Origin: a virus
Strand: one strand, 5' to 3'
Virus record (IMG/VR): IMGVR_UViG_3300044644_001125
Span: 83,623-147,622 of that record
DNA: 64,000 nt
Part shown: piece after piece, positions 5,788 to 38,527 of the stretch
How the letters are laid out: each line of letters begins with the position of its first letter
Numbering within the stretch: position 1 is the stretch's first letter
Program-made: the position numbers and the translations under genes
Notes under the pieces: model-generated
Databases searched by the model: none
Seen by the model: the letters and a program-made list of their open reading frames with translations, nothing else
Told to the model about the DNA's origin: nothing

Positions 5788-5861
5788 GATTATTCCTCGT
5801 AACTAAAATCAATTATTATACGACATTATCTTTTAGTTTTTACCCATTGTCAATACCCTAG

Positions 5862-5891
5862 ACAAAAAAATGCCCAGCTACAAGAACTGGG
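5862..5891 (-). terminator. rho-independent terminator downstream of tRNA unit
   Basis: Minus strand CCCAG-9nt-CTGGG followed by CAUUUUUUUGUC. Confidence 0.6.
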
Positions 5892-6233: not shown

Positions 6234-6309
6234 TGGTGCCATTACAGGGATTCGAACCCCGATCTTACGCATTATGAGTACGCGGCATTAACCGTTATGC
6301 TATAATGGC
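6234..6309 (-). tRNA. tRNA-Met (anticodon CAU; could be elongator Met or Ile2 if lysidinylated), CCA encoded
   Basis: Manual cloverleaf: acceptor GCCATTA/TAATGGC; D stem GCAT/ATGC; anticodon loop CTCATAA; T arm CGGGG-TTCGAAT-CCCTG; discriminator A; CCA end. Confidence 0.8.
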
Positions 6310-12116: not shown

Positions 12117-12575
12117 TTAGTAAAATTCCGGCATGAATTCTTCTTCAAAGTCATCGATAAAATCGAGTTCATTAAAGTCATTATCTGCAAACTGTTCCAT
12201 GTCTACATCACTTGGTGTATAATTGCCTTTCTTTGCCGCTACATAGCTTGTAACTCTATCAACCAGTCTTTCCATTGGCTTGTCTAAGTTCTTCCCAGTG
12301 ACGGTGCCTGTGTTGCATTCTAACTTGATGTCAAATAACACATCCGCCAAGCCTACTGAATATTTAATGTCGCAATCGAATAAGAAGTTTACCGCGCCAC
12401 TGGTGTTAGATTTTAAACCGTTTTGATAGTAATCATAGTATACGCGTCCAATGGCTCTCATCATCTCACCTTCAACACTTCCAGCATTACCTGCTTTTGG
12501 TACGATTTCTTTTAATGCGTTATATTCGTTTTGCATTTTGCCTAGATTGTTCCAGTATATGTTTTTCATTTTCAT
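12117..12575 (-). CDS. hypothetical protein
   Basis: 152-aa ORF with class-A cassette. Confidence 0.6.
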   Translation of the reverse strand: MKMKNIYWNNLGKMQNEYNALKEIVPKAGNAGSVEGEMMRAIGRVYYDYYQNGLKSNTSGAVNFLFDCDIKYSVGLADVLFDIKLECNTGTVTGKNLDKPMERLVDRVTSYVAAKKGNYTPSDVDMEQFADNDFNELDFIDDFEEEFMPEFY

Positions 12576-12642
12576 TTACTCCGTAGTGCTTGTTAAGGTG
12601 GTGATAGTTTAATTGGAAACTATCACCGTGTCAAGTTATCTT

Positions 12643-12806
12643 TTAGTCTTCAGATTCTCTGCGGTCTAATTCAATGGCTAGTAACTCTTGCATAACTTCA
12701 GTAAAGGCATCTCTTGATTCTAATTCTGAATACAACTCAAACTTGAGTTCCAGTTCATCGTATGTCATTTCACTGATTTGGTTTTTGATTTCATTTATGT
12801 TCATTG
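12643..12806 (-). CDS. hypothetical acidic small protein
   Basis: Start at internal ATG 12804-12806 preceded by AGAGGCACTACCAATG leader. Confidence 0.45.
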
Positions 12807-12832
12807 GTAGTGCCTCTGGGTTGGTTAGGTTA

Positions 12833-12857
12833 GGCTCGCGCGTTGCGCTCGCGAGCC
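12833..12857. repeat. GC-hairpin element (GGCTCG-cgc-gtt-gcg-CTCGCGAGCC), left copy of a 45-bp direct repeat
   Basis: ttaggttaggctcgcgcgttgcgctcgcgagccatgtatgtt repeated at 13141-13182. Confidence 0.6.
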
Positions 12858-12868
12858 ATGTATGTTGT

Positions 12869-13066
12869 TTAGATGATACAATCGTTATCTGCATCAATTT
12901 CCAATGTTACGCATTCGGTGGAAATATCGTCACCATTATCAATCCATGCCAATCCAACACGATTTTTATCTATTGTGAATTGTTCATCTGCGTATGCAAC
13001 CGATACCACTACCGGTAAGTCTGCATCGAATGTGGATAATACTGCAATTAGTTCTTTGATTGTCAT
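12869..13066 (-). CDS. hypothetical protein (cassette flanked by direct repeats)
   Basis: 65-aa ORF with class-A cassette. Bracketed by hairpin-containing direct repeats at 12826-12868 and 13141-13182. Confidence 0.55.
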   Translation of the reverse strand: MTIKELIAVLSTFDADLPVVVSVAYADEQFTIDKNRVGLAWIDNGDDISTECVTLEIDADNDCII

Positions 13067-13146
13067 TATCTTTACTCCGTAGTGCTTGTTAAGGTGGTGA
13101 TAGTTTAATTGGAAACTATCACCTTGTCAAGTTATCTTTTAGGTTA

Positions 13147-13171
13147 GGCTCGCGCGTTGCGCTCGCAAGCC
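13147..13171. repeat. GC-hairpin element, right copy of direct repeat
   Basis: Identical to 12833-12857 except one base. Confidence 0.6.
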
Positions 13172-13277
13172 TTGTATGTTTAGGTTGACACCTACTTGAT
13201 TAGAGTAGTTAGAAGGTGCAGTTTCCTTCCATGCCAAGTATCACTTGCACTGCACCCTTATGTCATTATCTTTTAGG

Positions 13278-13517
13278 TTATTGGTCTTCGTATGCTCTGG
13301 CTAGTAACTCTGCCGTTTTAAAGATATGGTGAACTCTATCATCTTTTAGTGCGATTTCAAGAGCCTCCTCGTCATCAATCGAGAAGTCATTGTCAAAGTG
13401 TTCTACCATGTACTCCTCGAAACTATCTGCCTCAGATTCTAGCAAGTAGTCTAAGATACTAGACAAACGGTTTAAGTTGGTTTCTGTTAAGGTGATTGTT
13501 CTGTATTGTTCGCTCAT
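13278..13517 (-). CDS. hypothetical acidic protein
   Basis: 79-aa ORF with cassette. Confidence 0.55.
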   Translation of the reverse strand: MSEQYRTITLTETNLNRLSSILDYLLESEADSFEEYMVEHFDNDFSIDDEEALEIALKDDRVHHIFKTAELLARAYEDQ

Positions 13518-13951: not shown

Positions 13952-14245
13952 TTAATCGATGGTTCTAACTGCTCTGACGTATCCGTCACCGTAACTCTTA
14001 CCGTAGTAACTCTGAATCCCGATTGACATATGATTACTCCATGCGTTGACATCATTATACTCAGTAGATGACCAGTAGTAATCTTCCTCAAACTCATTTT
14101 CCGATTCATAAATCTGCGTTAGTTCGTCTGTGGTTGGTAAACGCCATCCTGTTTTCTCGTTGATATTAAGCGAAAAGCAGTATTGGCTGGCATCATACCA
14201 GTTGGCTTGAATCTCTGTTTCTTTTGGTGCGATTTCAATGTTCAT
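13952..14245 (-). CDS. DUF1566/Lcl C-terminal domain-like small protein
   Basis: MNIEIAPKETEIQANW..YCFSLNINEKTGWRLPTTDEL..YYWSSTEY..AW..YVRAVRTID. Confidence 0.65.
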   Translation of the reverse strand: MNIEIAPKETEIQANWYDASQYCFSLNINEKTGWRLPTTDELTQIYESENEFEEDYYWSSTEYNDVNAWSNHMSIGIQSYYGKSYGDGYVRAVRTID

Positions 14246-25534: not shown

Positions 25535-25848
25535 GTTAAGTCTCTTACTGCACGCACGTAGCTGATGTAATTCTTGCCGTAGTTACTGAGCTGAACACCA
25601 TTCGATAAATTCTGACACCAGGCGTAGTTAGCATTGTACTCAGAAGACGACCAGTAGAAGGAATCAACAAAGTCCCAGTAGTAGGTACAGCCAAAGTCAT
25701 TTTTGTATTCATAGATATGATTTAATTCATCTTTAGTGGGTAATCGCCATCCAGTCTTACCATCGATATTAAGAGAAAAGCAGTAGAGCTTGGCATCAAA
25801 CCAATTGAGAAATGCCTCTGTTTCTTTTGGACTTATTTCGAATTTCAT
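25531..25848 (-). CDS. DUF1566-like small protein
   Basis: Same motif set. ATGA-type overlaps on both sides. Confidence 0.65.
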   Translation of the reverse strand: MKFEISPKETEAFLNWFDAKLYCFSLNIDGKTGWRLPTKDELNHIYEYKNDFGCTYYWDFVDSFYWSSSEYNANYAWCQNLSNGVQLSNYGKNYISYVRAVRDLT

Positions 25849-26138
25849 TGTAAATCCCTGATTGCTCTTACGTAGTTGTAGTCATAATCTTTAGCCCCAT
25901 CAAATTGACCACCAGTACCAAACGACTGAAACCATGCTTTTGAGCCATCGACCTCGGTAGAGGACCAATATCCCCATTTTTCAAAATCATGTTTTGTATC
26001 GAATATTTTATCTAGTTCTTCAAATGTTGGTAATCTCCAACCGGTTTTACCATTTATACGAAGAGCAAAGCAATACAACTTGGCATCATCCCAATTGGCT
26101 TGGATCTCTGTTTCCTTGGGTGCTATTTCGATGTTCAT
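25845..26138 (-). CDS. DUF1566-like small protein
   Basis: MNIEIAPKETEIQANW..GWRLPTFEEL..YVRAIRDLQ. Confidence 0.65.
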   Translation of the reverse strand: MNIEIAPKETEIQANWDDAKLYCFALRINGKTGWRLPTFEELDKIFDTKHDFEKWGYWSSTEVDGSKAWFQSFGTGGQFDGAKDYDYNYVRAIRDLQ

Positions 26139-26201
26139 GATGGTTTCCTAAAAGATAATGGAACCATGCGCGTAGGTTAGTACGCGCGATTGTCTGGTTG
26201 A

Positions 26202-26432
26202 CTATCTGAATAGTCGTTTAATGTCTGGTATAATATCTTTAAATGAAAGTACTAACAGTCCAATTACAATACATGGTAGTATTGTTGGCCATGCGATTAC
26301 TGCTATAAGTTTTGTTATAACTCGTAATAGTCGGTTTGTAATCCAATCAAATAATCCATCGTAATCCATGTTTATGATCCAAAACATTCCCATAAACAGC
26401 CAAAAAATTCCTATTAGTACAAGATCTATCAT
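26202..26432 (-). CDS. small membrane protein
   Basis: 76-aa hydrophobic ORF with 2-3 TM helices. Confidence 0.5.
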   Translation of the reverse strand: MIDLVLIGIFWLFMGMFWIINMDYDGLFDWITNRLLRVITKLIAVIAWPTILPCIVIGLLVLSFKDIIPDIKRLFR

Positions 26433-26713
26433 AGTAATCTCCTAGTCAAATAAGTACTGCCAAAATCAATCCGATTGTCCAGAATGCTTGCGAAGTTGTT
26501 TGAGTTCTGGGTTTCTGTATAGAATCCATTTAAGCCGCAACTTGTTAAAACATACTTTTATCCAATCAACGGCTTCCATGAGGTAATATATTGGAATCAT
26601 CCAAAGACAATGGTATCCAAACTTGTTATGCATGTTGTTCTCCTGTTTAGGTTTAAGATGTGGTTAGTATACTGGATTAATTATGAATGTCAAGCAAATT
26701 ATGGGTTGGTGTT

Positions 26714-27199
26714 TCAATCTATATATTCAGTTACTCCACGACTTACTGTTAACTGATTGATAATTTGATCATCAGTTTTAGCTTCACACAATTTTTCATT
26801 TACTTTACCCCAGTGAAAAGTAGAATTATACTGCCTATTAAAAATGGGGTTTAGTTGACTAATTAACGATATTTCTAATATCTCAGCATTAGTGATGTTT
26901 TTGGTAATGCATACATCAACATTATCCATCAAAGGAGTAACCTTTTGTAAATCAGTTAAATTGTATTTTAACAAGTTGCTAACGTTAGATAACGTTAAAT
27001 GCGTTGACAGTCTAGTTCGTAAATTAGCAGCCTTGCCAATGTAGAGTAACTCTGATTGTTTAGTATATATCAAGTATACTCCGCAATTATCAGGTCGGTT
27101 AATTTCAACTGGTACATCAATGTTATATTTGAACCAGTTCTTTATATTAACTCTATCATATTCAATGCTAATATTGGTAGTTTCTTTCATCTGTTTCAC
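26714..27199 (-). CDS. GIY-YIG nuclease domain protein (small homing-endonuclease-like)
   Basis: CGVYLIYTKQSELLYIGKAANLRTRLSTH matches GIY-x10-YIG...R...H. Confidence 0.6.
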   Translation of the reverse strand: MKQMKETTNISIEYDRVNIKNWFKYNIDVPVEINRPDNCGVYLIYTKQSELLYIGKAANLRTRLSTHLTLSNVSNLLKYNLTDLQKVTPLMDNVDVCITKNITNAEILEISLISQLNPIFNRQYNSTFHWGKVNEKLCEAKTDDQIINQLTVSRGVTEYID

Positions 27200-27217
27200 T
27201 CAGGAAGTTGACTCTAT

Positions 27218-27240
27218 GGCTCGCCACTAGCGTGGCTCGC
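27218..27240. repeat. GC-hairpin element (GGCTCG-ccac-tag-cgtgg-CTCGC)
   Basis: Covarying stem variant just upstream of GIY-YIG gene. Confidence 0.6.
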
Positions 27241-27269
27241 AAGATTGTATAATTACATGTAAGAAGGTT

Positions 27270-27686
27270 TTAGTCAAGGCTATTGATGAAATCGGTATAT
27301 TTGGTTTTGTATTTTGGGTTAAGTTGAATCGCTGGTTCGCCTAGTTCGAAACGCCCTTTAATAACTTCTGAAGCATACCAGTAAGAGTATGATGCACCAG
27401 TTGCAATCGCTGGTTCGCCTAGTTCGAAACGTCCATTAATAAAATCAGCATATTCATAAGATGTTTCTGCGTCGGTTGCAATGGCAGGTTCGCCTAGTTC
27501 AAAACGTCCATTGAGTATACTACACGCATAACAGTAAGCACTTCTCGGATCTGATGCAATAATCTCTACAAGTTCTGGAATGCGAGTATGCGTTTCCTCG
27601 TCGGTGTAAGCCTGGCGAATAGTGTCTAAAATATCGAGTGCTGCAAGCGGTGTTGGTTTAGAAGGTAAGGTGAGTTGAAAAGTCAT
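27270..27686 (-). CDS. tandem-repeat protein (3 x ~30 aa INGRFELGEPAIAT..)
   Basis: Protein-level repeats mirrored by DNA repeats gctggttcgcctagttcgaaacg at 27330-27530. Confidence 0.55.
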   Translation of the reverse strand: MTFQLTLPSKPTPLAALDILDTIRQAYTDEETHTRIPELVEIIASDPRSAYCYACSILNGRFELGEPAIATDAETSYEYADFINGRFELGEPAIATGASYSYWYASEVIKGRFELGEPAIQLNPKYKTKYTDFINSLD

Positions 27687-27734
27687 GATTGTTCTCCGAG
27701 GTTGTTTAAGTTGTGGTTAGTATACTGAATTAAT

Positions 27735-27986
27735 TTAGGATGTCAAGTGTTTTTCATTATCTTTTAGATCTCTTACTGGTATGCAGGTTGCTGTATTATG
27801 ATCAAAGTAATTGCAATTTTGAAAAAGTACATTGTACCGGTCTGGTAGTTCAAAGACGTATTCTTTATCTGTCGGTAATCGCCATCCAATTTTACCATCA
27901 ATATTAAGTGAGAAGCAATAGACCAATGCTTCCGAGTAGGTTATTTCTTCTTTGTGATATTCTTCTGGTGCTATTTCGATGGCCAT
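27735..27986 (-). CDS. DUF1566-like small protein (short variant)
   Basis: MAIEIAPEEY..LVYCFSLNIDGKIGWRLPTDKEY..CIPVRDL. Confidence 0.55.
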   Translation of the reverse strand: MAIEIAPEEYHKEEITYSEALVYCFSLNIDGKIGWRLPTDKEYVFELPDRYNVLFQNCNYFDHNTATCIPVRDLKDNEKHLTS

Positions 27987-28082
27987 GCGATTCTCTAAAA
28001 GATAATTGAGTTACCGTGTATTATACCGAAACAATCAATTATGTCAATAACAAAAAAGGGTATCTTTCGATACCCTTGTAGA

Positions 28083-28802
28083 TTAGCAGTTCCACTTTCT
28101 CAGTGCCAGTGCTTTTCTGGTTGGCTTGCCATGTTCATCCTTCATTGGTCCTTTCATACCACTCATTCTAGCACAGAAACTTTTACGTCGTTTGGCTGCT
28201 TTGCTACCTGGTTTGAGTTTACTTGGTTTAGTAGTGACTGCTGTTTGAAGTTTACTTCCAGGGTGTTCTCTGCGATAGCTAGCTACACCTTTCTTGTTCA
28301 AACCACCTCGTTTGTTCTTGCCTTCTTTACGTTGCCAAGCAGCTGTTTCAAAGAGTTCACGATCACTGACTGATTCAAAGTCTTCCCAAATGACGTCACT
28401 ATCAACGTTATGTTGTATGGCTAAACTTTCTACCATGTCTTCGATCATGTCGAACATCTCGTCAACAGTTGGGTTGACTCCTTGGTCTTCTTGACTTTGT
28501 AGGTAATCCCAAACAGAAACCAGCATGCTTTCTGCTTTTGCGATTTTCTCTTGAGCCCATTCTGGTAGGTTTTCATTGTCGTCAATTGTATCGAGAAGCC
28601 CATCAACTGCTCTTCGAAGCGTATGAAGATTGCTGTGAGCCATCCCAGCTTCGTCATCATATTCTGCATTGAAGTTTTCGTTTGGTACACAGTTATTGAC
28701 TCGGATACCACCTTTCATCTTAGTACCTTCTTTGTGTTTGCCCTTCCAACAACTTGGGTCTAGGCGTTGTTTTGATTCTGTAATTAGTTCACTGATGCGC
28801 AT
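28083..28802 (-). CDS. hypothetical protein, MRISELI N-terminus, Lys/Arg-rich Cys-containing C-terminus
   Basis: 239 aa. C-terminal KRRKSFCARMSGMKGP...ALALRKWNC resembles 61224-61484. Confidence 0.55.
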   Translation of the reverse strand: MRISELITESKQRLDPSCWKGKHKEGTKMKGGIRVNNCVPNENFNAEYDDEAGMAHSNLHTLRRAVDGLLDTIDDNENLPEWAQEKIAKAESMLVSVWDYLQSQEDQGVNPTVDEMFDMIEDMVESLAIQHNVDSDVIWEDFESVSDRELFETAAWQRKEGKNKRGGLNKKGVASYRREHPGSKLQTAVTTKPSKLKPGSKAAKRRKSFCARMSGMKGPMKDEHGKPTRKALALRKWNC

Positions 28803-28871
28803 TTTGGTAATCCTCTTAGTTTTGTGTATTTATTTGGTGCTGGTAAGTTAAATACATGTTTAAGGTGTATT

Positions 28872-29588
28872 ATGAGAATCGAAGAAATACTAAGTGAAGT
28901 AAAACTAAAGCCACGCATATCAAATAAGTCTACAAGTGGCGTTTTGAAATCACCGAACTTACAGTTTATCGCAACTGGTACCCAAGCTATTGCGTATTAT
29001 CACAAAACGCATCCGAATACTGTTGTTAAAGTTGCTGCGGTATCTGGTGAAGGAGACCCCATTTGGCAGTTCTTGCGTATTTGCATCAATAATCAAAAGA
29101 ATCCGTATTTTCCAAAAATCTTTAACTACAAGATATTCAATTTAAAATCGATAACCGATGAAGAAGAAGCGTACTTGGAAAACAATCCAGAGTTTGAATA
29201 CTTACCTATTCATGATAATAGAAAGATGCAAATACTAATGGTAACTGAACGGCTTGATGAAATCACTGCACCTGAGTTTGAACAAGCATTGAGTAAACTA
29301 GGATTAGACAAATTGATCAACTATACTAAAAGAAAATGGCAACCTGGTTACAGCTATCCATTAACAACAGAACTAATATGGAAAATGTTAATGGATAAAG
29401 AAGTTGGTAGACGGTATTTACGGTCTGAATCAACTGACAAGCACTTTTCGGATGCCATTAGGCTATTGAGTCCATTGATAGCAACCGGTAGAATGTATGC
29501 TGATGTTCATCTTGGGAATATGATGTTGAGAAAAGATGGGCATTTGGTATTTAATGATCCACTAGCTATTACCCTTTCAGATGAATAG
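28872..29588 (+). CDS. hypothetical protein (MRIEEIL N-terminus)
   Basis: Start at second ATG, with AAGGTG SD. The six-frame ORF begins 48 nt earlier. Confidence 0.55.
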   Translation: MRIEEILSEVKLKPRISNKSTSGVLKSPNLQFIATGTQAIAYYHKTHPNTVVKVAAVSGEGDPIWQFLRICINNQKNPYFPKIFNYKIFNLKSITDEEEAYLENNPEFEYLPIHDNRKMQILMVTERLDEITAPEFEQALSKLGLDKLINYTKRKWQPGYSYPLTTELIWKMLMDKEVGRRYLRSESTDKHFSDAIRLLSPLIATGRMYADVHLGNMMLRKDGHLVFNDPLAITLSDE

Positions 29589-29612
29589 CAAACTCACATT
29601 CTCGGCAGGGAA

Positions 29613-29858
29613 CTAATCGACATCTCGCACTGGATAGCAAAAGTACTTTACGGTATCCAGTTCCGAATCCATCAATGATGGTTTGTCTTCTTGCACCCAA
29701 CCAATAGACAGCACTGGTTTGCTATTGCTATCGCGGAAGTCTTTATACGATGGTATTCTCCAACCAATCTTACCATCGATGTTTAATGAAAAGCAATATA
29801 GTATTGATTCGTTCCACGTTATTTTTTTGTGGTATTCTTCTGGTGCTATTTCGATCAT
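29613..29858 (-). CDS. DUF1566-like small protein (short variant)
   Basis: MIEIAPEEYHKKITWNESILYCFSLNIDGKIGWRIPS..YPVRDVD. Confidence 0.55.
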   Translation of the reverse strand: MIEIAPEEYHKKITWNESILYCFSLNIDGKIGWRIPSYKDFRDSNSKPVLSIGWVQEDKPSLMDSELDTVKYFCYPVRDVD

Positions 29859-29912
29859 TGGTTTTCTCTAAAAGATAATAAACAAACAGTCTACATTATC
29901 TTTTAGTTTCGG

Positions 29913-30719
29913 TCAACTTAAACTTGATTGATAATCAGTAAGATGTTGGTAGATTGATTTCAAGTATCTGCGGTATACTTTCTCGTAGCCTGGTTCTTGT
30001 CTATTCTTAAAATCAGAATAGGTAGTTGCTTGCTTTGGAATTTCTTTTAGGAATACAGTAATAGCAGTGGCTTGTTCAGCTACAGGTAACTTGTGTATCT
30101 TATTGATTAGATCCGATGCAGCTTCTTGTGCGTATGCTGCTATTTCATCAGGTTGAGATTTGTAGATTTCGTGTGCTCTTACTTTCTCTTCTTCTGATTT
30201 GAATTCATCTTGAATCAAGGCTGTAAAGAATTTGATTTTGTCTTTTTCAATATAGCCACGTTTGTATTTGTATCGTTGTCCGTGACTTACTTGCGTAGCA
30301 TGAGTAACTTCATGCAGGAATACTGAAGTCAAGTAACCAATGATAGTATCTAGTTCAGTAGAAACGTCAATCTTTTCTGTCAACTGTTTATATAGCAGTG
30401 TGATAAGTTTTGAAAGTACTTTAGGTGAAATAGTTATCGTGTTGGTGTCTTCGAGGTACTGGCCGGTTCCATTGGGTAGGGATTTAAACTGAATAGTAAC
30501 CTCACTGTTTGTTATTTGTTTTGCGTAATCTGTTAGAATAGGTTTGATCGCATTAACAAACGCAGTATTGTACTTGACCATAAACTGCATATCCATTTTC
30601 GCTGGCGGTTGCGTTGGCGTTTTGAATATCGTTGCAACAGCGGTGTGTAATGCTCGGTTAATCGTTGGTGTGTAGTTTGATAACGATATACGTTCACTTA
30701 AGATTTCTGCGATTCTCAT
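29913..30719 (-). CDS. hypothetical protein with HExxH motif (possible metallopeptidase-like), MRIAEIL N-terminus
   Basis: VFLHEVTHATQVSHG. 4-nt overlap with upstream gene. Confidence 0.55.
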   Translation of the reverse strand: MRIAEILSERISLSNYTPTINRALHTAVATIFKTPTQPPAKMDMQFMVKYNTAFVNAIKPILTDYAKQITNSEVTIQFKSLPNGTGQYLEDTNTITISPKVLSKLITLLYKQLTEKIDVSTELDTIIGYLTSVFLHEVTHATQVSHGQRYKYKRGYIEKDKIKFFTALIQDEFKSEEEKVRAHEIYKSQPDEIAAYAQEAASDLINKIHKLPVAEQATAITVFLKEIPKQATTYSDFKNRQEPGYEKVYRRYLKSIYQHLTDYQSSLS

Positions 30720-31528
30720 ACTGATGCCTTTCTTGTAAGGATGAAGCTATCACCGTAGGTTTCGATATTCCAAGTATTAGAAAAGAACTTGTTAAGGATT
30801 TTAGAATAGACTGCGAATCTACGATTTTGTCTAACGTGTACGCCTTCTGGTGAGTAACTAGTGATCACTGACATGAATCGTTCTAGTTGTTTGAAGGCTT
30901 CGTTCATCTCTGGATATTTGCTGAGTTTCATGTCAGCAGCTTTGCGTATTTGCCAGTATAGTTTATCAAACTCACTTGAACTATATTTTTCAACTGGCTG
31001 GGTAAGATATTGTTTGATTGCCTCGATTGTTTCTAATACCAGGTTGTACTTATTCTTTCTAATCTCATCTTCTTCAGTTTTTAGTAACTCGTTTGTCACT
31101 GAACTTAAACCTTGCAATGATGCGAGTAATTCTCTTTTAGGTCTTTCTACTGGTATATTGAATTTGTGTTTGGTATCACTAGGAGTTGAATGCGCAGAGA
31201 AAGTGCACCGGTCGATTTTGGCTTTGTCGAGATAGGTTTTAACGATGTAGCCAACCCCAGATAGAATATCAAAATCATTATCAATATCTTTTCCTTCAGT
31301 CGATGCGGTATCATACATTGTACCATTAACATAGAAAACAACATCGGTTGTTTTCTCATCGCCATCGGTTGTTGTTTTGAATTGAATGTCTACTTGATTA
31401 CCTTTGTTTGTGGTAAAAGTACGTTGTGCTATTTTGTTCTTAGAACCTTGCATACCGGCTTTTGATACAGTTGAACTTTTAACTGTAGTTAAAGGTTTCT
31501 TTGGTTCTAGTAGTTCGTGAATTCGCAT
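30716..31528 (-). CDS. hypothetical protein (MRIHELL N-terminus)
   Basis: 270-aa ORF. Confidence 0.55.
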   Translation of the reverse strand: MRIHELLEPKKPLTTVKSSTVSKAGMQGSKNKIAQRTFTTNKGNQVDIQFKTTTDGDEKTTDVVFYVNGTMYDTASTEGKDIDNDFDILSGVGYIVKTYLDKAKIDRCTFSAHSTPSDTKHKFNIPVERPKRELLASLQGLSSVTNELLKTEEDEIRKNKYNLVLETIEAIKQYLTQPVEKYSSSEFDKLYWQIRKAADMKLSKYPEMNEAFKQLERFMSVITSYSPEGVHVRQNRRFAVYSKILNKFFSNTWNIETYGDSFILTRKASV

Positions 31529-31589
31529 TGGATAATGTCCTCTTTTGGTATTGAAGTATTTATGGAGGACATTATCTTTTAGGTTGTGG

Positions 31590-32378
31590 TTACTTCGACA
31601 TCGAGAACATAGTCATGTCGTGGGGGATAAGAATAGTTTGAACTTTTCCATCTCTTACTGCTTCAGCAATAGTTACCTGAGCAGTTGCTAACATATAGTC
31701 AATAGCACCTTTATTCGCATTTAACACTGCAATTCGTTCTGCTTCTTGTTTAGCAGTTTGTACTTCAATCTCTTTTTGTTTGTATGCGTTTTTAGCACGA
31801 ACTAGAGAGTTTGCAGAATCTACCACCGTATCAGCTGGAGTAATACTACGTACTAGAACTTGGCTAATAGTCAAAGCAGTATCTAATTTTTCATCCCTTA
31901 AGGTTTGAACAATAGTATCTTTGACTTCTTGTTCGATGGCTTGTCTTGCATCACTCATGTCCAACGCATCATACTTTCTTGCCGACTTGTAAACTGCATT
32001 ACGTGCGGCTGCTGTGATGTAATTGTACATTAGATACGTATCACCATGAGTGTCAGTGGTATTGAATGAACGATTCTTAGTTGAGTAAAGTTCAGCCACT
32101 GAATCTGGATTAACATTGTAGATGACTACAAGATCAAAGTCTTTCATGGTTGAGTTGTCTTTTGCTACTGGCGTTAAATCATCAATTGAAACACCAACAT
32201 CCTTGACTGGGATAGTAATCACATCACCAAGTAGAACTTGATTGAATGAGCCTGGTTGTAACTCATCAAGTTCAACTTGTTTGGATACATTGACACGAAC
32301 ACCTCGATGCCCAGATTCGATACGTGTACAACCAGTGGCTAAGATAGTTGCGAGTAATACTAATAGTAGTTTGTTCAT
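31590..32378 (-). CDS. SPFH/band-7-like lipoprotein
   Basis: Start at MNKLLLVLLATILATGC (lipobox). C-terminal region with coiled AERIAVLNANKGAIDY segment typical of SPFH proteins. Confidence 0.55.
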   Translation of the reverse strand: MNKLLLVLLATILATGCTRIESGHRGVRVNVSKQVELDELQPGSFNQVLLGDVITIPVKDVGVSIDDLTPVAKDNSTMKDFDLVVIYNVNPDSVAELYSTKNRSFNTTDTHGDTYLMYNYITAAARNAVYKSARKYDALDMSDARQAIEQEVKDTIVQTLRDEKLDTALTISQVLVRSITPADTVVDSANSLVRAKNAYKQKEIEVQTAKQEAERIAVLNANKGAIDYMLATAQVTIAEAVRDGKVQTILIPHDMTMFSMSK

Positions 32379-32561
32379 TTTGTTTTCCTTAGAATAAGAA
32401 TACAACTGTCATAAGAACAGTAATGGTTAAAATTGCGCATTGTGCTACCAATGCGAGTAGATATTTTGCAAGTTTGATCTGATCATCAGTCATTTGCCTT
32501 AATACTAAAGTACCCAAGAAAAATGCGATGAATACAATTAAGAATATTAACGTGGTTTTGA

Positions 32562-32870
32562 TCATGTTAGATCCTTAGAAGATAATATCAGTTGTTGAAT
32601 AGCTTTGCCAAACTCTTCTTTAGTTTGTGGTAGCGGAATACTTTCACCAGAACTGTTAGCCCAACGATCAAAATGTTCCAATGGACAAGAAACTTGGAAT
32701 CTGAGTTCTCCGTTTTCTGGTACCAAGAAACGCCATCTGCGATCATTGCCAATAAAGTAAGGTGGGTACTTTGAGAATATCTGTCTCCATAATTTTGATT
32801 TTCTCGTACCTTCTGGTTTTAAACCGTTTGAATTAAGCCAGCGTTTAAAGTCTCTGTGAAGTTTTTGCAT
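32562..32870 (-). CDS. hypothetical basic protein
   Basis: 102-aa ORF. Confidence 0.5.
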   Translation of the reverse strand: MQKLHRDFKRWLNSNGLKPEGTRKSKLWRQIFSKYPPYFIGNDRRWRFLVPENGELRFQVSCPLEHFDRWANSSGESIPLPQTKEEFGKAIQQLILSSKDLT

Positions 32871-32928
32871 GTTGTACTCCTGTGTTAAGTTAAGAGTATT
32901 ATACCTGTAGTTGACTGGATGTCAACTA

Positions 32929-33165
32929 CTATTCGTCGAGGTCGTCCATGTATTCCATGTCTTGCTGAATCATATCGTACATACTACTGTAGCAGGTTGG
33001 ACAAAATGCAACTGGAAGTATTCCAAAGTATCCTTGAATTCCGCCCTCGTCATCCGAAAATTCGCAAGAACAAACATTGCAAATATGGTCGGTACCTATA
33101 TGTGAAAATTGTTCAATCATGTGTAACTCCATTGTGTTCATTGTTAAGGAGTGGTTATTATACAT
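32929..33165 (-). CDS. Cys-rich zinc-ribbon small protein
   Basis: CNVCSCEF...CPTCYSS. Confidence 0.45.
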   Translation of the reverse strand: MYNNHSLTMNTMELHMIEQFSHIGTDHICNVCSCEFSDDEGGIQGYFGILPVAFCPTCYSSMYDMIQQDMEYMDDLDE

Positions 33166-33228
33166 AAGGGCGACTGGATGTCAAGAGTTTTTGGTGTGGA
33201 TATAACGAGAACAGGGGGCTCACCTACT

Positions 33229-33453
33229 TCAATCATCTTTTAGATCTCTTACTGGCGTTACGTACCACTTACCCTTACCAGAAGTTCTTCCAATGCACCA
33301 GCACATAGAATTGGTAATTCCCTTAGTATTCATGTATTCGTCGATGGTTGGTAATCTCCAACCGATTTTACCATCGATGATTAACGAAAAGCAATACATC
33401 AATGCTTCCTCATACGTCATTTCGAATTTTGTTCGTTCACCTATTTCAATCAT
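33229..33453 (-). CDS. DUF1566-like small protein
   Basis: MIEIGERTKF..MYCFSLIIDGKIGWRLPTIDEY..YVTPVRDLKDD. In a tandem quartet with 4-8 nt overlaps. Confidence 0.6.
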   Translation of the reverse strand: MIEIGERTKFEMTYEEALMYCFSLIIDGKIGWRLPTIDEYMNTKGITNSMCWCIGRTSGKGKWYVTPVRDLKDD

Positions 33454-33694
33454 CTTTTAGATCTCTTACTGGAGTAACATACCACACAATATTCGCTGTA
33501 GGTCTACCAACGTACCACGAGCCGTATATATACTTATTGCCGTAATATTCCTCTTGCGTTGGCAATCTCCAACCTATCTTACCATCAATATTAAGTGAGA
33601 AGCAATACATAACGGCTTCTTCATGCGACAGTTCGACTTCTGTTCTTATGGCTACTTCAATCATTTCAAATCTCTTACTGGAGTTACGTACCAT
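33446..33694 (-). CDS. DUF1566-like small protein
   Basis: Same motif set; coupled to neighbours. Confidence 0.6.
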   Translation of the reverse strand: MVRNSSKRFEMIEVAIRTEVELSHEEAVMYCFSLNIDGKIGWRLPTQEEYYGNKYIYGSWYVGRPTANIVWYVTPVRDLKDD

Positions 33695-33870
33695 TTAAGA
33701 CCCATATTTCTACTAAGATGCCAAGACTCGGTAATCTTCGAATTCTGCATGTATTCGTTACTTGTTGGCATTCTCCAACCAATCTTACCATCTACGTTTA
33801 ATGAAAAGCAATACATCCTTGCTTCGTCGTATGTCATTAGAAATTTAGTTCGTTCACCTATTTCAATCAT
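33661..33870 (-). CDS. DUF1566-like small protein
   Basis: Same motif set. Confidence 0.6.
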   Translation of the reverse strand: MIEIGERTKFLMTYDEARMYCFSLNVDGKIGWRMPTSNEYMQNSKITESWHLSRNMGLKWYVTPVRDLK

Positions 33871-34100
33871 CGCAAATCCCTCACTGGCGTAACTCGTCGT
33901 GGAAAAGTACTATCACTTGCCAACTTGTTTTCGTACCATCCGGCAATAGGTGGAATGATTTCCCATTCATCGTAGCTTGGTAATCTCCAACCAATCTTAC
34001 AATCATAAGATAAGGTAAAGCAATACAGTTTTGCTTCGGAATATGACATGGCGGATTCTGACAGTGGTGCTAGTTCAATCCCAAATTCTTCAATTATCAT
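33867..34100 (-). CDS. DUF1566-like small protein
   Basis: LYCFTLSYDCKIGWRLPSYDEW..RVTPVRDLR. Confidence 0.6.
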   Translation of the reverse strand: MIIEEFGIELAPLSESAMSYSEAKLYCFTLSYDCKIGWRLPSYDEWEIIPPIAGWYENKLASDSTFPRRVTPVRDLR

Positions 34101-34104
34101 AGCT

Positions 34105-34473
34105 TCACCACTTCAATGCAGTTTTTAATTCAAATTCTTTGTATGCGATATCAGCAATTGGAATTTCATATCGCATGGCTTTTGCTGCTATAACTGCTAA
34201 GTCTCCATTGCAAGAAATAAACTTAAACAACTTGTCTTCACACTCATAGAAGATATCAGCATCTTGTAGTTTCTCTAGGGTAGAAGTATGAATCAAGTAT
34301 TTCAAACAGTTGTTACCAAACTCATATTCTAGTTTGCCAATGATTTTGTTTGGTACAAGTTTATGAACTACGCCTTTGTTTGTTTCTAGTGTTAATAGTT
34401 TTACAGTATCGAATTCCACATGGGTTCTTTGTACTGTATACCAATCGTGATAATGCCATTTGTTTTCTGCCAT
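34105..34473 (-). CDS. hypothetical protein
   Basis: 122-aa ORF. Confidence 0.5.
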   Translation of the reverse strand: MAENKWHYHDWYTVQRTHVEFDTVKLLTLETNKGVVHKLVPNKIIGKLEYEFGNNCLKYLIHTSTLEKLQDADIFYECEDKLFKFISCNGDLAVIAAKAMRYEIPIADIAYKEFELKTALKW

Positions 34474-34520
34474 TTGATTTTCCTTTGGTTATTTTCTAAA
34501 AGATAATAGCTTACTTTGGT

Positions 34521-34748
34521 TTAATTGTCAATGCTTCGTACTGGGATAATTGTATGCGTTTCTGTAGTCCAATTGTCATTGATGTCTTCATCATACCAAT
34601 AACCGTCTTCATTTGTCATTATAACAAGCGACGTCAGGCATTCTTCACATGTGGGTAATCTCCAACCATCACCTAAACAAAAACAATACAAGACTGCTTC
34701 TGTGATGGTACCCTCTTTCCACAATACTCTAGGTGCTATTTCAATCAT
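34521..34748 (-). CDS. DUF1566-like small protein (degenerate)
   Basis: MIEIAPRVLWKEG..LYCFCLGDGWRLPTCEEC..IIPVRSIDN. Confidence 0.55.
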   Translation of the reverse strand: MIEIAPRVLWKEGTITEAVLYCFCLGDGWRLPTCEECLTSLVIMTNEDGYWYDEDINDNWTTETHTIIPVRSIDN

Positions 34749-34965
34749 CTTTTAGATCTCGTACTGGGGCAAGCAACCAGTTACCTTTACTGGGTCTGGG
34801 TCTACCAATATACCAACAACCCATTAATTGATCGTTACCATACCATTCATCTTTGGTTGGTAATCTCCATCCAGTCTTACCATCTATATTCAACAAAAAG
34901 CAATACATAATTGCTTCCTCGTAAGATAGTCTTAATTCACGGTCAATTGGTGCTATCTCAATCAT
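34741..34965 (-). CDS. DUF1566-like small protein
   Basis: Start moved to MIEIAPIDREL; the longer six-frame ORF lacks family features upstream. Confidence 0.55.
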   Translation of the reverse strand: MIEIAPIDRELRLSYEEAIMYCFLLNIDGKTGWRLPTKDEWYGNDQLMGCWYIGRPRPSKGNWLLAPVRDLKDD

Positions 34966-35203
34966 CGTCAGGTACCTCGCGAACAGGTTGTAAAAAGTAA
35001 ACGTCATCAGGATTGTACCACTGTTTACGGTCAACGTACAACCAATCACGGTCAACGTACCACCAATCACTGTACATTTCGTATAGTAAGCATTCATCCA
35101 AGGTTGGAAAACGCCAACCATCAGCTAGGCAAAACAGGTAGAATTTTGCATCTTCGTAAGTTACTCTTGTTGTGGTTGGCTTACCCATTTCTAATCTAAT
35201 CAT
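34958..35203 (-). CDS. DUF1566-like small protein
   Basis: Start moved to MIRLEMGKPTT. FYLFCLADGWRFPTLDEC..LQPVREVPDDD. Confidence 0.5.
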   Translation of the reverse strand: MIRLEMGKPTTTRVTYEDAKFYLFCLADGWRFPTLDECLLYEMYSDWWYVDRDWLYVDRKQWYNPDDVYFLQPVREVPDDD

Positions 35204-35399
35204 CTTTAATATCTCGCACTGGTCTAACAAAAAACGTACTAACTTGTGAGATTCTATCAACATACCAAGAACCTTGCAATTCATACTCAATGTATTCGGC
35301 TTCAGTTGGCAATCTCCAACCATCACCCAAGCAAAAACAATATAAGATTGCCTCGTCATACGTGATTCGTTTGTTATAGTACTTCCCAATCTCAATCAT
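35196..35399 (-). CDS. DUF1566-like small protein
   Basis: MIEIGKYYNKRITYDEAILYCFCLGDGWRLPTEAEY..VRPVRDIKDD. Confidence 0.55.
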   Translation of the reverse strand: MIEIGKYYNKRITYDEAILYCFCLGDGWRLPTEAEYIEYELQGSWYVDRISQVSTFFVRPVRDIKDD

Positions 35400-35634
35400 C
35401 GTCAACATCTCTCACTGGTACAAGTGGGCATAACCCAACACTATGAATCGAGTCTTCAGCAACCCAGGCATGTATTATGGTTGGCGATTCACCGTGGATA
35501 ACAGCCATGATGTTGTTAAGTTCACGTCTAGTCGGTAGTCGCCATCCAATATCTAATTTTAATAGATGCAATTCTGCATCGGATCGTGATATATTATGGG
35601 TTGGGCGTAATTCTATTGGCGATACTTCTATCAT
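35392..35634 (-). CDS. DUF1566-like small protein (divergent)
   Basis: MIEVSPIEL..LHLLKLDIGWRLPTRREL..LVPVRDVDDD. Confidence 0.5.
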   Translation of the reverse strand: MIEVSPIELRPTHNISRSDAELHLLKLDIGWRLPTRRELNNIMAVIHGESPTIIHAWVAEDSIHSVGLCPLVPVRDVDDD

Positions 35635-35684
35635 TGGTAGCCCTCGGTTGGTGGCTTACTAAACCTTAATAAGCCACCAGGTTA

Positions 35685-35915
35685 TTAAAGGTTAGGTAAT
35701 ACCCAGTTGTTAATGATGAGTAATATCCCACCAAGAATCAACAATGGTCCTAAAACCAATCTTGTAACATAACCACAGATTTCACTATCAACCACAGGTT
35801 CTTCTGATTGAACTTCTGGTTTGATACGATTTTTGTTTGATTCTTTTAAAGCCATGATTGTCTCCGTTTGTAATTTAGAAAGGGCTATTCTATCGAACAA
35901 TCTATCGGTTGTCAA
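35685..35915 (-). CDS. small membrane protein
   Basis: C-terminal hydrophobic helix. Confidence 0.45.
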   Translation of the reverse strand: MTTDRLFDRIALSKLQTETIMALKESNKNRIKPEVQSEEPVVDSEICGYVTRLVLGPLLILGGILLIINNWVLPNL

Positions 35916-35966
35916 CTACAAAACAGCACCTAAATATAACTAATCTTACCACAAAGGAAACCAAAC

Positions 35967-36191
35967 ATGAGAGCAGCAGAGTTTATGCGAACCCTGGCGG
36001 ATTTAATCGACCAGCTAGAAAACAAAACCGATGATACTAAATCATCTGAATCAGAAACACCAATGGATTCTGGTGATATAATGGTACCACCTCTACAGCA
36101 AAAGATCGAGTTGATGAAAAAGATGACAAACTCGGATGATGATAACTTTAATACAGCAGCGGCTGAAGAAGACGAACCATTCGAAGGATAA
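35967..36191 (+). CDS. hypothetical acidic protein
   Basis: AAAGGAAACCAAAC-ATG SD. Immediately precedes the tail fibre gene. Confidence 0.45.
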   Translation: MRAAEFMRTLADLIDQLENKTDDTKSSESETPMDSGDIMVPPLQQKIELMKKMTNSDDDNFNTAAAEEDEPFEG

Positions 36192-36193
36192 CA

Positions 36194-38158
36194 ATGGGTT
36201 TTACTCAAGACTTTCTTACTAGTAGAAGAAACAACGACGATGGTAGTACCAGAATCGGTGAACATGATCGCCTCTGGTATTCGAGCTCAGACAACACCAT
36301 CAGGATTGGTGACAATGTTACGCCTGGTGGTATTATTGTCTGTGGTGGCGGTACAGGTGATGGAATTTATGTATTACCAACTGCCAGTACTACCGTAAAA
36401 GGTGGTGTTAAAATTGACGGAACTTCTATCACAATCAATAACGAAGTTATTAGTGGATTTGATGGTAACTACAATTCGTTGTCTAACAAACCAGTTCTGT
36501 TTAGTGGTAACTATAATGATCTAACGAATAAACCAGTTTTATTCAGTGGGTCATATAACGACTTAACTAATAAGCCTACCATCCCAGCAGCACAGGTTCA
36601 ATCGGATTGGTTGGCAACAAGTGGCGTTGCCGAAATCCTAAACAAACCAGCTATACCAGATATCACCGGTATAACAGAAGTGTTTGCGGCAACCGGTGAA
36701 CCAATGGGCCATGCCGACAAAACCCATTCGTTGATTTCATTTGATGATGCAAGTAGAACTTTCACTATATCACCGGTGAATAGTTCATTTGATATCTGGG
36801 TAAAAGGAACTAAGTGGGTAATCACCAACTCAAGATCAGTAACTATACCAGATAATACTGGCCTGTATTACATTTATTTTGATGCCACTGGTACGTTGCA
36901 TTATAAAACAACGTTCTTTGATTGGCCAAATGATTGTATGACAGCTTATGTTTATTGGAATAAACTAACCGGTAAAGCGCCATACGTTGCAGATGAAAGA
37001 CATGGTATAACCTTAGATTGGCAAACCCATGAATACCTGCACAGAACACGTGGTGCAGCAATTGCAAGTGGTTTCACTGCCTCCAATTTTATAATAAACG
37101 GTGATGGTTCTCTCAATTCACATCTTCAATTAGATATAGAATCTGGTACGTTCTTTGATGAAGATTTACAAGTTGATGTTATTAGTACCAATACACCAGT
37201 AGCAAATTCTTGGCAACAAGACTTAGCTGGCCCTGCACGAATACCAATGTTCTATATTAACAGTGGCGGTGGTTGGGTAATGGATCCAGCTACTGACTTT
37301 CCAGTAAAACAAGGTTTGTTACCAAAGTATAACTTGTATAGCGGTGGTAACTGGACTACACCTGATATCGATAATAACAAGTTTGGTGTTAGTTTCATCT
37401 TAGCAACCAATAACATCAATTATCCTGTTATTGGAATTATTGGTCAATCATCGCATGCCAACCAAGGCGATGCAGAAGCAGTTAATTTCACTGATTTGTC
37501 ATTACCCGGATTCCCAGTTGTAGAATTAAGACAGCTATATAAACTGGTATTCCAATGCAAAACAAGTTATACCAATACGGTACATGCTAGACTTACATCG
37601 ATATTTGACTTAAGAAGTTTTAGTAGCACAACATCGGCAATGGCTACTTATACCGATCATGGATCTTTAAGTGGATTACTAGATGATGATCATCCGCAAT
37701 ATCTACTAAGAACCGATGTGAGTGCACTTAATGGTCCCGCATTTAGTGTGTATCGAGATGCAGTGCAAACCATACCAACTGATGTGTTAACCGCAATGAC
37801 TTGGACTGTCGAAGAGTACGATACCCATAACTGCGTAACATCAACTAGATTCACACCAACCGTTGCAGGTTACTATGCCCTTGTTGCTACTGTTAGAATT
37901 GATGGTGGTATCGGTACAGGTGAACGTATGATTTGTATTAAGAAAAATGGTACAGAATATCGACGAGGTATGAACTCTAAAGGTACTGCTAGTGTTGGAG
38001 ATAGTTGGTTTCAACTAGATATTTCATGCCAAGTACATGCTAATGGTACTGGTGATTACTTTGAAGTGTTTGTTCAACAGGGTGCTGGTGCTGATAGAAA
38101 TACGACAAGTGGACAACCATTCACTGCATTCCAAGGATGCATGTTGCGTGCTGCATAG
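36194..38158 (+). CDS. tail fibre / receptor-binding protein
   Basis: N-terminal repeats S(G/N)YNDLTNKP(V/T). Tail-fibre signature LLDDDHPQYLLRTD near C-terminal domain. AAGGATAACA-ATG SD. Confidence 0.7.
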   Translation: MGFTQDFLTSRRNNDDGSTRIGEHDRLWYSSSDNTIRIGDNVTPGGIIVCGGGTGDGIYVLPTASTTVKGGVKIDGTSITINNEVISGFDGNYNSLSNKPVLFSGNYNDLTNKPVLFSGSYNDLTNKPTIPAAQVQSDWLATSGVAEILNKPAIPDITGITEVFAATGEPMGHADKTHSLISFDDASRTFTISPVNSSFDIWVKGTKWVITNSRSVTIPDNTGLYYIYFDATGTLHYKTTFFDWPNDCMTAYVYWNKLTGKAPYVADERHGITLDWQTHEYLHRTRGAAIASGFTASNFIINGDGSLNSHLQLDIESGTFFDEDLQVDVISTNTPVANSWQQDLAGPARIPMFYINSGGGWVMDPATDFPVKQGLLPKYNLYSGGNWTTPDIDNNKFGVSFILATNNINYPVIGIIGQSSHANQGDAEAVNFTDLSLPGFPVVELRQLYKLVFQCKTSYTNTVHARLTSIFDLRSFSSTTSAMATYTDHGSLSGLLDDDHPQYLLRTDVSALNGPAFSVYRDAVQTIPTDVLTAMTWTVEEYDTHNCVTSTRFTPTVAGYYALVATVRIDGGIGTGERMICIKKNGTEYRRGMNSKGTASVGDSWFQLDISCQVHANGTGDYFEVFVQQGAGADRNTTSGQPFTAFQGCMLRAA

Positions 38159-38194
38159 GACTAAAAGATAATTGAAGTTAGTTTCGATTATCTT

Positions 38195-38527
38195 TTAGCA
38201 ATCCCGCACTGGTCTAACTAGGGTAGTATTCACGTATTTGTCATCCCAAGTGGTGTGCATGTCAACCAGCAGTGGCATCGCAAGCCACGCACATCCTGAG
38301 TAATCAACATGCTCCTCGCTGGACCAGTATCTAGGATACTTCCGATAATTCATTGTCTGGGTATGTTCCGAAGTGATTAACCCTCTTGACCCAAGCCAAT
38401 GCAATTCTCGCATCGTTGGTAATCTCCAACCAACCTTTCCATCGATGTTCAACGAAAAACAATACAAACGGGCTTCATCCCATGCGAGTGCTTTGATGTA
38501 TTCTAATGGTGCAAGTTCTATGTTCAT
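38195..38527 (-). CDS. DUF1566-like protein (long variant)
   Basis: Start moved to MNIELAPLEY. LYCFSLNIDGKVGWRLPTMREL..LVRPVRDC. Confidence 0.55.
   Translation of the reverse strand: MNIELAPLEYIKALAWDEARLYCFSLNIDGKVGWRLPTMRELHWLGSRGLITSEHTQTMNYRKYPRYWSSEEHVDYSGCAWLAMPLLVDMHTTWDDKYVNTTLVRPVRDC

Follow-up and report, generated by a model that had tools for sequence, protein, structure and literature searches.

A 64,000-nt stretch of viral DNA (positions 83,623 to 147,622 of IMG/VR record IMGVR_UViG_3300044644_001125, hereafter the window) carries two near-identical GC-rich hairpin repeats, H1 and H2, which flank a small gene (geneA) and its promoter. We examined this locus in the window and in related metagenomic contigs. 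The two-hairpin arrangement was probably generated by modular shuffling through homologous or microhomology recombination, similar to that of promoter-early stem-loop (PeSL) cassettes, with the hairpin element (H) acting as an intercistronic RNA stem-loop. We concluded that H is one of several reusable intergenic modules where recombination occurs, and that it is no marker of cassette ends.

Arrangement of the hairpin repeats in the window

A repeat search found a direct repeat of 42 nt, with H1 at 12825-12866 and H2 at 13139-13180 (both minus strand); the copies are 40/42 identical and their starts are 314 nt apart. With up to three mismatches allowed, exactly two occurrences of the 25-nt core GGCTCGCGCGTTGCGCTCGCGAGCC are present in the 64 kb (0 expected from 100 shuffles), and a covariance model of H recovered just the same two copies within the window. 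The preliminary description had placed GC-hairpin direct repeats of 45 bp at 12826-12868 and 13141-13182. The repeats are real, although their length is 42 nt and their coordinates were 1-2 nt off. It had also stated that exactly one small gene plus a promoter cassette lies between the repeats, in agreement with the single open reading frame (ORF) at 12869-13066 and the single promoter/leader module at 13071-13142 found here.

On the sense strand H1 forms the stem-loop GGCUCGCG-AGCGCAACG-CGCGAGCC (12857-12833), located 11 nt past the geneA stop codon and 29 nt ahead of the geneB ATG; folding of the sense RNA gave -16.1 kcal/mol (z-score -3.9). H2 is a T-type allele (GGCUUGCG...), in which the stem change retains a G.U pair in the sense strand only, and is directly followed by TAACCTAAAAGATAAC and then by promoter P2. 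H1 and H2 are alike outside the stem as well, with non-structural flanks that read AACATACA[T/A]GG (left) and TAACCTAA (right).

The genes at the locus are all encoded on the minus strand, and the order in the direction of transcription is up, P3' relic, H2, P2, geneA, H1, leader AGAGGCACTACCAATG, geneB, P1, geneC. The geneA product is a 65-aa ORFan with homologs restricted to this narrow lineage, and no paralog of geneA was found in the window. None of geneA, geneB, geneC and up has a Pfam match or a functionally annotated PHROG match; geneA alone gave two weak PHROG matches, to families of unknown function. The 72-nt module P2 contains -35/-10 boxes (TTGACA-17-TAAACT, 13130-13102), an upstream element CTAAAAGATAAC, and the leader CTTAACAAGCACTACGGAGTAAA. 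Its twin P1 (12575-12646, minus strand), ahead of geneC, has the same boxes, and in both modules an 11-bp palindrome (GGTGATAGTTT/AAACTATCACC) lies across the spacer and the -10 box. P1 and P2 are 71/72 identical and 496 nt apart, which makes them a stronger repeat than H1/H2. Because P2 is itself a repeat of P1, the H and P pairs interleave (H2-P2-geneA-H1-geneB-P1-geneC).

The 53-aa ORF geneB (12643-12804, minus strand) has its leader AGAGGCACTACCAATG at 12805-12824 and, in the window, no promoter of its own; transcription reaches it only through H1. A gene call of 83-84 aa that reads through H1 was rejected, as relatives have an 8-nt indel there. Since this indel falls between H1 and the geneB leader in two relatives (contigs L005 and L023), the H region is non-coding. 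The P3' relic (13181-13264, minus strand) is 84 nt long and contains a promoter-like ATGACA-18-GATACT, a palindrome GGTGCAGT...ACTGCACC, and a decayed leader; it holds no ORF, aligns with the leader end of promoter modules, and continues straight into H2. No intact ancestral gene was found for it in IMG/VR or in any of the fetched loci, and it is unique to the window haplotype. We read P3' as an emptied cassette.

The variable locus is bounded by two conserved anchor genes, up (13278-13517, minus strand, 79 aa) on the left and geneC (12117-12575, minus strand, 150-152 aa) on the right. In the window geneC has two in-frame ATGs (ATGAAAATGAAAAAC, 12569-12575), and its relatives begin at the second (150 aa). 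The extra ATGAAA is the joint at which geneX or the geneB-P1 modules are present or absent.

Haplotypes of the locus and the probable origin of the two-hairpin arrangement

Relatives of the locus were recovered from IMG/VR, JGI, ENA, and Logan assemblies by scanning for exact patterns and by protein-based searches; samples with the locus include 3300020513, ERZ27271755, 3300059473, 3300044655, Ga0114980, Ga0209297, and B570J29032. Of the 35 metagenome matches to H, most were chance matches in high-GC DNA, and only L014, L015, L018, L021, L023, L034, L038, and L039 were related; L077 was left out because of a scaffold gap (N run) across the locus. Three haplotypes with 94-100% identity were distinguished. 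Haplotype W, the window arrangement with two hairpins, was recovered with 100% identity from L015/L071 and L070 (941/941), and its gene spacing recurs in a third sample. As it is identical in contigs of other samples, the two-hairpin arrangement is not an assembly artefact.

H2 is missing from the other two haplotypes, each of which has one hairpin. Haplotype B (L005, IMGVR_UViG_3300044655_001269, and L023) reads up, P2', geneA, H1, geneB, P1, geneC, and L005 alone carries an extra 72-aa gene between P1 and geneC. The geneA ORF is intact in B, with three synonymous and two non-synonymous codon differences. B is devoid of the window-specific segment 13133-13264, which comprises P3' and H2 (132 nt, gene-less) and is bounded by 14-nt AACCTAAAAGATAA repeats at 13265-13279 (minus strand, overlapping the stop codon of up) and 13131-13145. 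It is also without 8 nt (CCAACCCA) just past H1-TAACCTAA. Haplotype E (L014 and L034, from two different samples and differing by point changes) reads up, CTAAAAGATAAT-GACATACAT, H, leader, geneC. Relative to the window it shows two separate indels, one on either side of H1, with microhomologies of 5-6 nt: 398 nt are absent at ACATA (12866-13263, i.e., the remaining P3', H2, P2, and geneA) and 235 nt at AATGAA at the start codons (12571-12805, geneB and P1). The empty site with one repeat copy, which had been proposed as a check in related genomes, is thus present in L014 and L034 (up, H, geneC), and the whole-cassette differences among the haplotypes support the earlier interpretation to the extent that the locus gains and loses cassettes.

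The sequence between the anchors is built from recurrent parts. The minus strand from 0.8 to 16.7 kb contains approximately 30 near-identical promoter/leader modules, which stand ahead of small ORFs or ORFans; the GCACTACGGAG leaders among them (21 copies) are all on the minus strand in the same interval, and 29 promoter-like sites were counted in 11-15 kb compared to 11.9 expected. Each module consists of CTAAAAGATAA, which often holds or abuts the upstream stop codon, the boxes TTGACA-17-TAnnnT, a palindrome that spans the spacer and the -10 box (at least three sequence classes), and a leader CCACCTTAACAAAGCACTACGGAGTAAA-N4-ATG. CTAAAAGATAA precedes the -35 box: the geneB stop is a TAA within it, and the stop codon of up directly abuts it. 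This 11-mer occurs 88 times (one mismatch or fewer) on both strands throughout the window, with a tandem cluster at 50432-50572. Besides its place upstream of -35 boxes, it is found inverted within promoter spacers, where its TAG starts the -10 sequence TAGAAT. The 11-mer also forms the boundary repeat of the 132-nt indel and may be bound by a regulator.

A comparison of the window with L005 across 14 kb showed seven rearrangements (indels, replacements, or translocations). Six of the seven junctions are inside promoter/leader modules (the CTAAAAGATAA element, the -10/CCACC region, or GGAGTAAA-ATG) and one follows a canonical hairpin-T7 terminator, while two other GC hairpins (at 9287 and 13924) sit inside collinear blocks. 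The notion that hairpin repeats mark cassette boundaries does not hold up against this distribution. The terminator (GCCCAGTTCTTGTAGCTGGGC plus T7, approximately 5860-5890, minus strand) bounds on the left a 1-kb stretch that is replaced in comparison to L005; its presence means that the phage uses T-run terminators where needed. At the locus itself the junction motifs are AACCTAAAAGATAA, TAACCTAA, ACATA, and AATGAA, and the indel junction repeats measure 5, 6, 8, and 14 nt with differing sequences. A second direct-repeat pair (13907-13946/16674-16713; 40 nt, 95% identical) was noted 2.8 kb apart, each copy consisting of a 22-nt hairpin and an A-run directly upstream of a promoter. The segment 16351-16646, beside one of these copies, is translocated in L005 (11025-11320).

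The haplotypes are recombinant mosaics, as seen from the switch in L023 from a B-like to a window-identical sequence: it shows all B-type differences down to 12902 plus the 8-nt deletion, and then, on the right-hand side of H1, it matches the window with 0 mismatches over more than 450 nt, where L005 keeps diverging. Likewise, the window P2 matches the P1 allele of L005 at 72/72 positions, whereas the geneA promoter of L005 itself differs at about eight; this marks the H2-P2 block of the window as recently imported or converted. The flanks of the hairpins are chimeric as well. H1 combines a B-type left flank (the geneA end) with an E-type right flank containing CCAACCCA. H2 combines the T-type allele and an AAGG left flank, as in L018, L021, L039, and L004, with the same right flank TAACCTAA as H1. 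This is the pattern expected of one crossover inside H/TAACCTAA. Since the H2 allele differs from H1, neither a fresh target-site duplication nor a fresh tandem duplication is involved.

These observations are consistent with the following scheme. The early region is assembled from a few reusable intergenic modules that share one frame. A stop codon inside CTAAAAGATAA comes first; the next position is taken by H or by a promoter core of sigma-70 type, whose -10 box is overlapped by a palindrome; a conserved leader, a Shine-Dalgarno (SD) sequence, and ATG follow. Homologous or microhomology recombination between the modules would reshuffle the ORFan cassettes, as has been proposed for PeSL cassettes, with co-infecting relatives, sister genomes, or excised circles as conceivable partners. 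The window arrangement would arise most simply by a single crossover within the approximately 33-nt H/TAACCTAA identity between parents P-geneA-H and up-CTAAAAGATAA-H. Equivalently, a circular P2-geneA-H cassette could integrate at H. Either event necessarily leaves H on both sides of P2-geneA. Other orders of events, such as a P1 x P2 tandem duplication followed by deletions or successive deletions from a W-like ancestor, account for the data less simply.

The suggestion that the repeats were left by insertion or duplication through the hairpins can therefore be kept in part, in that the flanks of H1 and H2 are chimeric as from a crossover in H/TAACCTAA. It is too narrow for the other differences, as geneA is accompanied by one hairpin in L005 and L023, where the 132-nt indel is bounded by AACCTAAAAGATAA, and E differs by the 398- and 235-nt indels at microhomologies.

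A purely local origin was also considered, in which unequal exchange between class-A promoters doubled a geneA-H-geneB-promoter unit, after which the upstream copy lost geneB (through CTAA microhomology) and geneA, leaving H2 beside P2. The two interleaved repeat pairs, P1/P2 and H1/H2, fit such a duplication, and the H2-P2 junction GAGCCTAACCTAA|AAGATAAC is what a geneB deletion between two CTAA motifs is expected to give; the left flank of H2 also resembles the geneA stop region (CTAAAC...ATACA-GG). This route nevertheless needs at least three further events, and it leaves aside the 84-nt P3' relic, whose palindrome is a different one and whose sequence resembles neither P2 nor geneA. In addition, the T-type allele and AAGG flank of H2 occur in distant relatives, and the intermediate haplotype was not found among the loci. 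We regard local duplication as improbable.

The hairpin as a portable module and related elements of the early region

Shuffling of modules is also consistent with the distribution of H, which was found in nine gene contexts and always in sense orientation, with the preceding stop codon 7-22 nt away and the next ATG 20-34 nt downstream, and never with a T-run after it. The contexts are after geneA; after the P3' relic; after up (haplotype E); between a Cys-rich gene and geneC (L018 and L075); after a paralog of up (L021); after geneB (L074); and sites in L038, L039, and L004, the last apparently the counterpart of that in L039. In L021, L074, and L004 the hairpin lies between CTAAAAGATAA[C/T] and the conserved leader, i.e., in the slot of the promoter core, and in L074, where geneB has its own promoter leader, it replaces the P1 core of L005 between the same two genes. 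Three stem positions vary: C to U (the T-type, in five contexts including H2), A to G (L074), and G-C to U-A (L074). All three changes retain pairing in the sense strand, the two single ones as G.U pairs, and both single changes give C.A mismatches in the antisense strand. The direction of these changes is suggestive only of a sense-strand RNA structure.

A scan for intrinsic terminators on both strands did not list H, which has the stem and a tail (UAACCUAA) with no T-run. Genes without a promoter follow H in the window (geneB, behind H1) and in L014 and L018 (geneC). We infer from this placement that H in the mRNA would be an intercistronic 3'-protective or attenuating stem-loop and not a full terminator. 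A role as terminator on the antisense strand was rejected on account of the weak tail and the C.A mismatches created by the T-type allele.

If H has such a function, the likeness of H1 and H2 could reflect function only: each copy would be the 3'-end stem-loop (stabilizer or attenuator) of its own unit, P3'-[lost ORF]-H2 and P2-geneA-H1, and selection would keep the copies alike without their being a footprint of the arrival of geneA. The H core is 24-25/25 identical in relatives whose neighboring genes are 70-82% identical, H recurs in nine contexts, H2 is a different and widespread allele rather than a copy of H1, and haplotype B has a single H beside geneA. An ORF-less layout of promoter, GC hairpin, and promoter also recurs at 9349-9160 and 16765-16602. 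Constraint on function alone, however, does not account for the identity in the non-structural flanks, the exact copy of a P1 allele in the neighboring P2, or flanks that are chimeric between haplotypes, which together point to recombination. We consider this explanation possible but unlikely.

The same minus-strand layout, in which a promoter is followed by a GC hairpin a few nt past the expected start site, no ORF, and the next promoter, is present at 13266-13071 as well. At 9308-9160 the hairpin is followed by approximately 150 nt of structured-looking non-coding sequence. Such layouts could be small RNAs, tandem promoters with a 5' stabilizing hairpin, or emptied cassettes.

The window contains in addition a family of 20 intergenic 22-nt hairpins, GCGA-N5-GNTA-N5'-GAGC, with invariant flanks and loop. 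They lie at 9287, 10850, 13924, 16691, 18860, 21135, 22126, 23227, 24532, 25174, 27219, 40330, 40395, 42219, 42261, 47810, 47878, 47913, 63487, and 63533. At least nine different, fully compensated 5-bp stems were observed, and every match to the flanks alone is paired at 5/5 positions; shuffles predict 0.02 copies. The flanks could form G-C, C-G, and tandem G.A pairs. With respect to transcription the hairpins are found in either orientation; many closely precede a gene start, and four are located in antisense just 3' of minus-strand stop codons. Members were also found in L005, L021, L073, and L077, and the family matched no known family. Two pairs of inverted hairpins (40330-40416 and 42219-42282) surround a 1.8-kb segment in which a small minus-strand ORF accompanies a homing-endonuclease-like gene (40515-41822); this segment may be a mobile unit.

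Such a family raises the question of a dedicated cassette system or mobile element, in which H, and perhaps the 22-nt hairpins too, would be the site of a phage nuclease or recombinase (an integron attC-like system, conversion driven by a homing endonuclease, or hairpin-recognizing HUH enzymes). Conserved flanks and loop with freely covarying stems (25 double-sided compensatory cells) in 20 copies would suit a recognized element, and H has the flanks of the family. HNH/homing-endonuclease-like ORFs and a TnpB-like ORF are present in the window, and the two inverted hairpin pairs bracket the endonuclease gene. However, the large ORFs scanned included no recognizable integrase or tyrosine recombinase, and the junctions fall at varied microhomologies and inside promoter modules, with no fixed position in H. 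Other hairpins of the family lie within blocks that are collinear between relatives, and H has only 2-3 copies per genome. A dedicated system is therefore very improbable in our estimation. There is a slim chance that H and the 20-copy family are recognition sites of a phage protein (a nuclease, a recombinase, or an RNA- or ssDNA-binding factor) that steers recombination or processing to cassette borders. If true, this would mean dedicated integron-like cassette exchange instead of passive homology-driven shuffling.

Several points weigh against PeSL-like shuffling with H as an RNA stem-loop, and they are considered here together. Recombination at this locus is known from its end products only. 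The precise parents are absent from the data (no up-UP-P3'-H(T) genome without geneA was found), and the exact 314-nt deletion product of H x H was found in no contig. Several event orders fit equally well, so that the differences may be insertions or deletions. Some junctions share only 5-8 nt, i.e., microhomology, compared to the approximately 50-100 nt of homology invoked for PeSLs. An RNA role of H is suggested only by its position, orientation, and wobble pairs; covariation in H, at three variable stem positions, was no better than in shuffles, which is due to the element barely varying. Lastly, H shares its GCGA...GAGC flanks with the 20-copy family, which is found in both orientations relative to transcription, and this leaves room for a role of H at the DNA level. 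PeSL-like shuffling nevertheless leads to concrete predictions for the existing read sets, namely deletion or circle junctions of 314 nt and 496 nt.

The source of the window is an uncultured large phage. This follows from three observations: a nucleotide search of the 3-kb region against 50,697 phage records gave no match, near or distant; the functions of the window ORFs are mostly unknown; and the only marker with clear cultured relatives is an ATPase with 52% identity to that of PA5oct-like jumbo phages. This ATPase gene (phrog_1297) adjoins a DUF2201 (VWA-like) gene, the two being located at 51238-52323 and 49184-50386 (minus strand). No T4 core genes were recognized among approximately 30 ORFs. 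In 185,579 bacterial and archaeal genomes the H core gave chance matches in high-GC genomes only, with no link to a host repetitive extragenic palindromic (REP) element or prophage. An Rfam scan of the window reached the gathering score for one tRNA gene only (6237-6309, minus strand, within the early ORFan region) and left H unmatched. A tRNA-like gene was seen by eye, and not confirmed by a tRNA finder, at approximately 230-310 of the more distant relative L076; the variable locus there has no H, and the tRNA-like gene is placed in it with a promoter module on one side and the gene preceding geneC on the other. About 15 paralogous small Lcl_C/DUF1566 genes (GWRLPT motif) are scattered through the window (e.g., 14113-14198, 25716-40235, and 60943-61028), some of them in tandem arrays (33.3-34.1 kb). 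The TnpB/Cas12f-like ORF (TNB domain) is at 53024-54307 (plus strand), close to the ATPase gene.

Comparison with PeSL cassettes and other known systems

Integron cassettes are accompanied by a nearby tyrosine recombinase, IntI, and have a fixed crossover point in hairpin core sites. The present locus resembles integron attC cassettes in having small genes between structure-conserved hairpin repeats and a cassette number that varies among relatives. It differs in the absence of an IntI-type recombinase, attI, and R/L core boxes, and in cassettes with their own promoters; no integrase was found among the ORFs scanned, and the junctions are at varied positions outside the stem. Nor did the repeat search find terminal inverted repeats, as in transposons or miniature inverted-repeat transposable elements (MITEs): the repeats here are direct, 42 nt long, and functional-looking, and the junction repeats have no fixed length. 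By the features tested the system is neither an integron nor a MITE or transposon insertion, and H is not an intrinsic terminator.

Lambdoid morons, which are discussed in PMC2839356, are similar in that single accessory genes with their own promoter and 3' hairpin are found between neighboring genes. Morons have no conserved repeated linkers at their bounds and are thought to arrive by illegitimate recombination, whereas the flanking modules here are repeated dozens of times and are likely recombination substrates. Intercistronic or REP-type mRNA stabilizers of bacteria and T4 share with H the GC stem-loop 3' of a stop codon, in sense orientation, without a T-run, and followed by a translated cistron. 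H stands apart from them by its low copy number (only 2-3 per genome) and by the near-invariance of its sequence, which would be unusual if it served solely as a structural stabilizer.

The closest likeness is to the PeSL regulatory cassettes of T4-type phages (PMC2839356, Arbiol et al., 2010; PMC4122927, Comeau et al., 2014). In a PeSL, the A/T-rich region that contains the stop codon of the preceding gene is followed by sigma-70 boxes, an SD sequence, and ATG, and the composite includes a stem-loop that is placed between the boxes, over them, or ahead of the -35 box (PMC2839356; PMC4122927). The likenesses extend to dense arrays of small ORFans, each behind a conserved composite of approximately 75-100 nt, and to an ORFan that is found between two composites in one phage, where the relative has a single composite in its place. 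The window shows a repeated intergenic composite with consensus sigma-70 -35/-10 boxes (the approximately 30 modules) and an A/T-rich CTAAAAGATAA upstream of the -35 box that holds or abuts the stop codon of the upstream gene. It also shows a stem-loop in or beside the promoter: the palindrome in P1 and P2, other palindromes in the other classes, and H2 upstream of the A/T-rich element of P2. H2, this element, and P2 together fit the subclass with the stem-loop upstream of the -35 box; H1 has no adjoining promoter. ORFan indels or replacements between close relatives, with crossovers in the composites, are seen in six of the seven junctions relative to L005 and in the three haplotypes.

The known carriers of PeSLs are T4-type phages, whereas the only informative marker of the present phage is the ATPase with 52% identity to that of PA5oct-like jumbo phages. 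H is a separate low-copy element of near-fixed sequence that is also found without a promoter and can fill the slot of the promoter core, and several junctions here have only 5-14 nt of identity. H also does not have a poly-G/poly-C stem; given this, the missing T-run, and the promoter-less genes behind it, H is unlikely to be a strong terminator as reported for PeSL211/210. Mini-circles and promoter/terminator activity are features of the PeSLs, while the present modules are known from their sequence alone.

With these differences, the system appears, at the level of sequence features, to work like the PeSL cassettes and to share their sequence hallmarks. It reveals no new kind of mechanism, as PeSL-type shuffling has already been described in T4-type phages. 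The novelty is modest and twofold: a near-invariant hairpin module that is able to replace the promoter core in the same intergenic frame, and evidence that comes from haplotypes of an uncultured large phage in the wild. A natural-population view of early ORFan turnover in a large phage is given by at least eight independent metagenome assemblies: whole promoter-gene-hairpin units are gained or lost between the two conserved anchors, with joints in a few reused modules. PeSL shuffling, so far known from cultured T4-type phages, would thereby be extended to a lineage without a close cultured relative.

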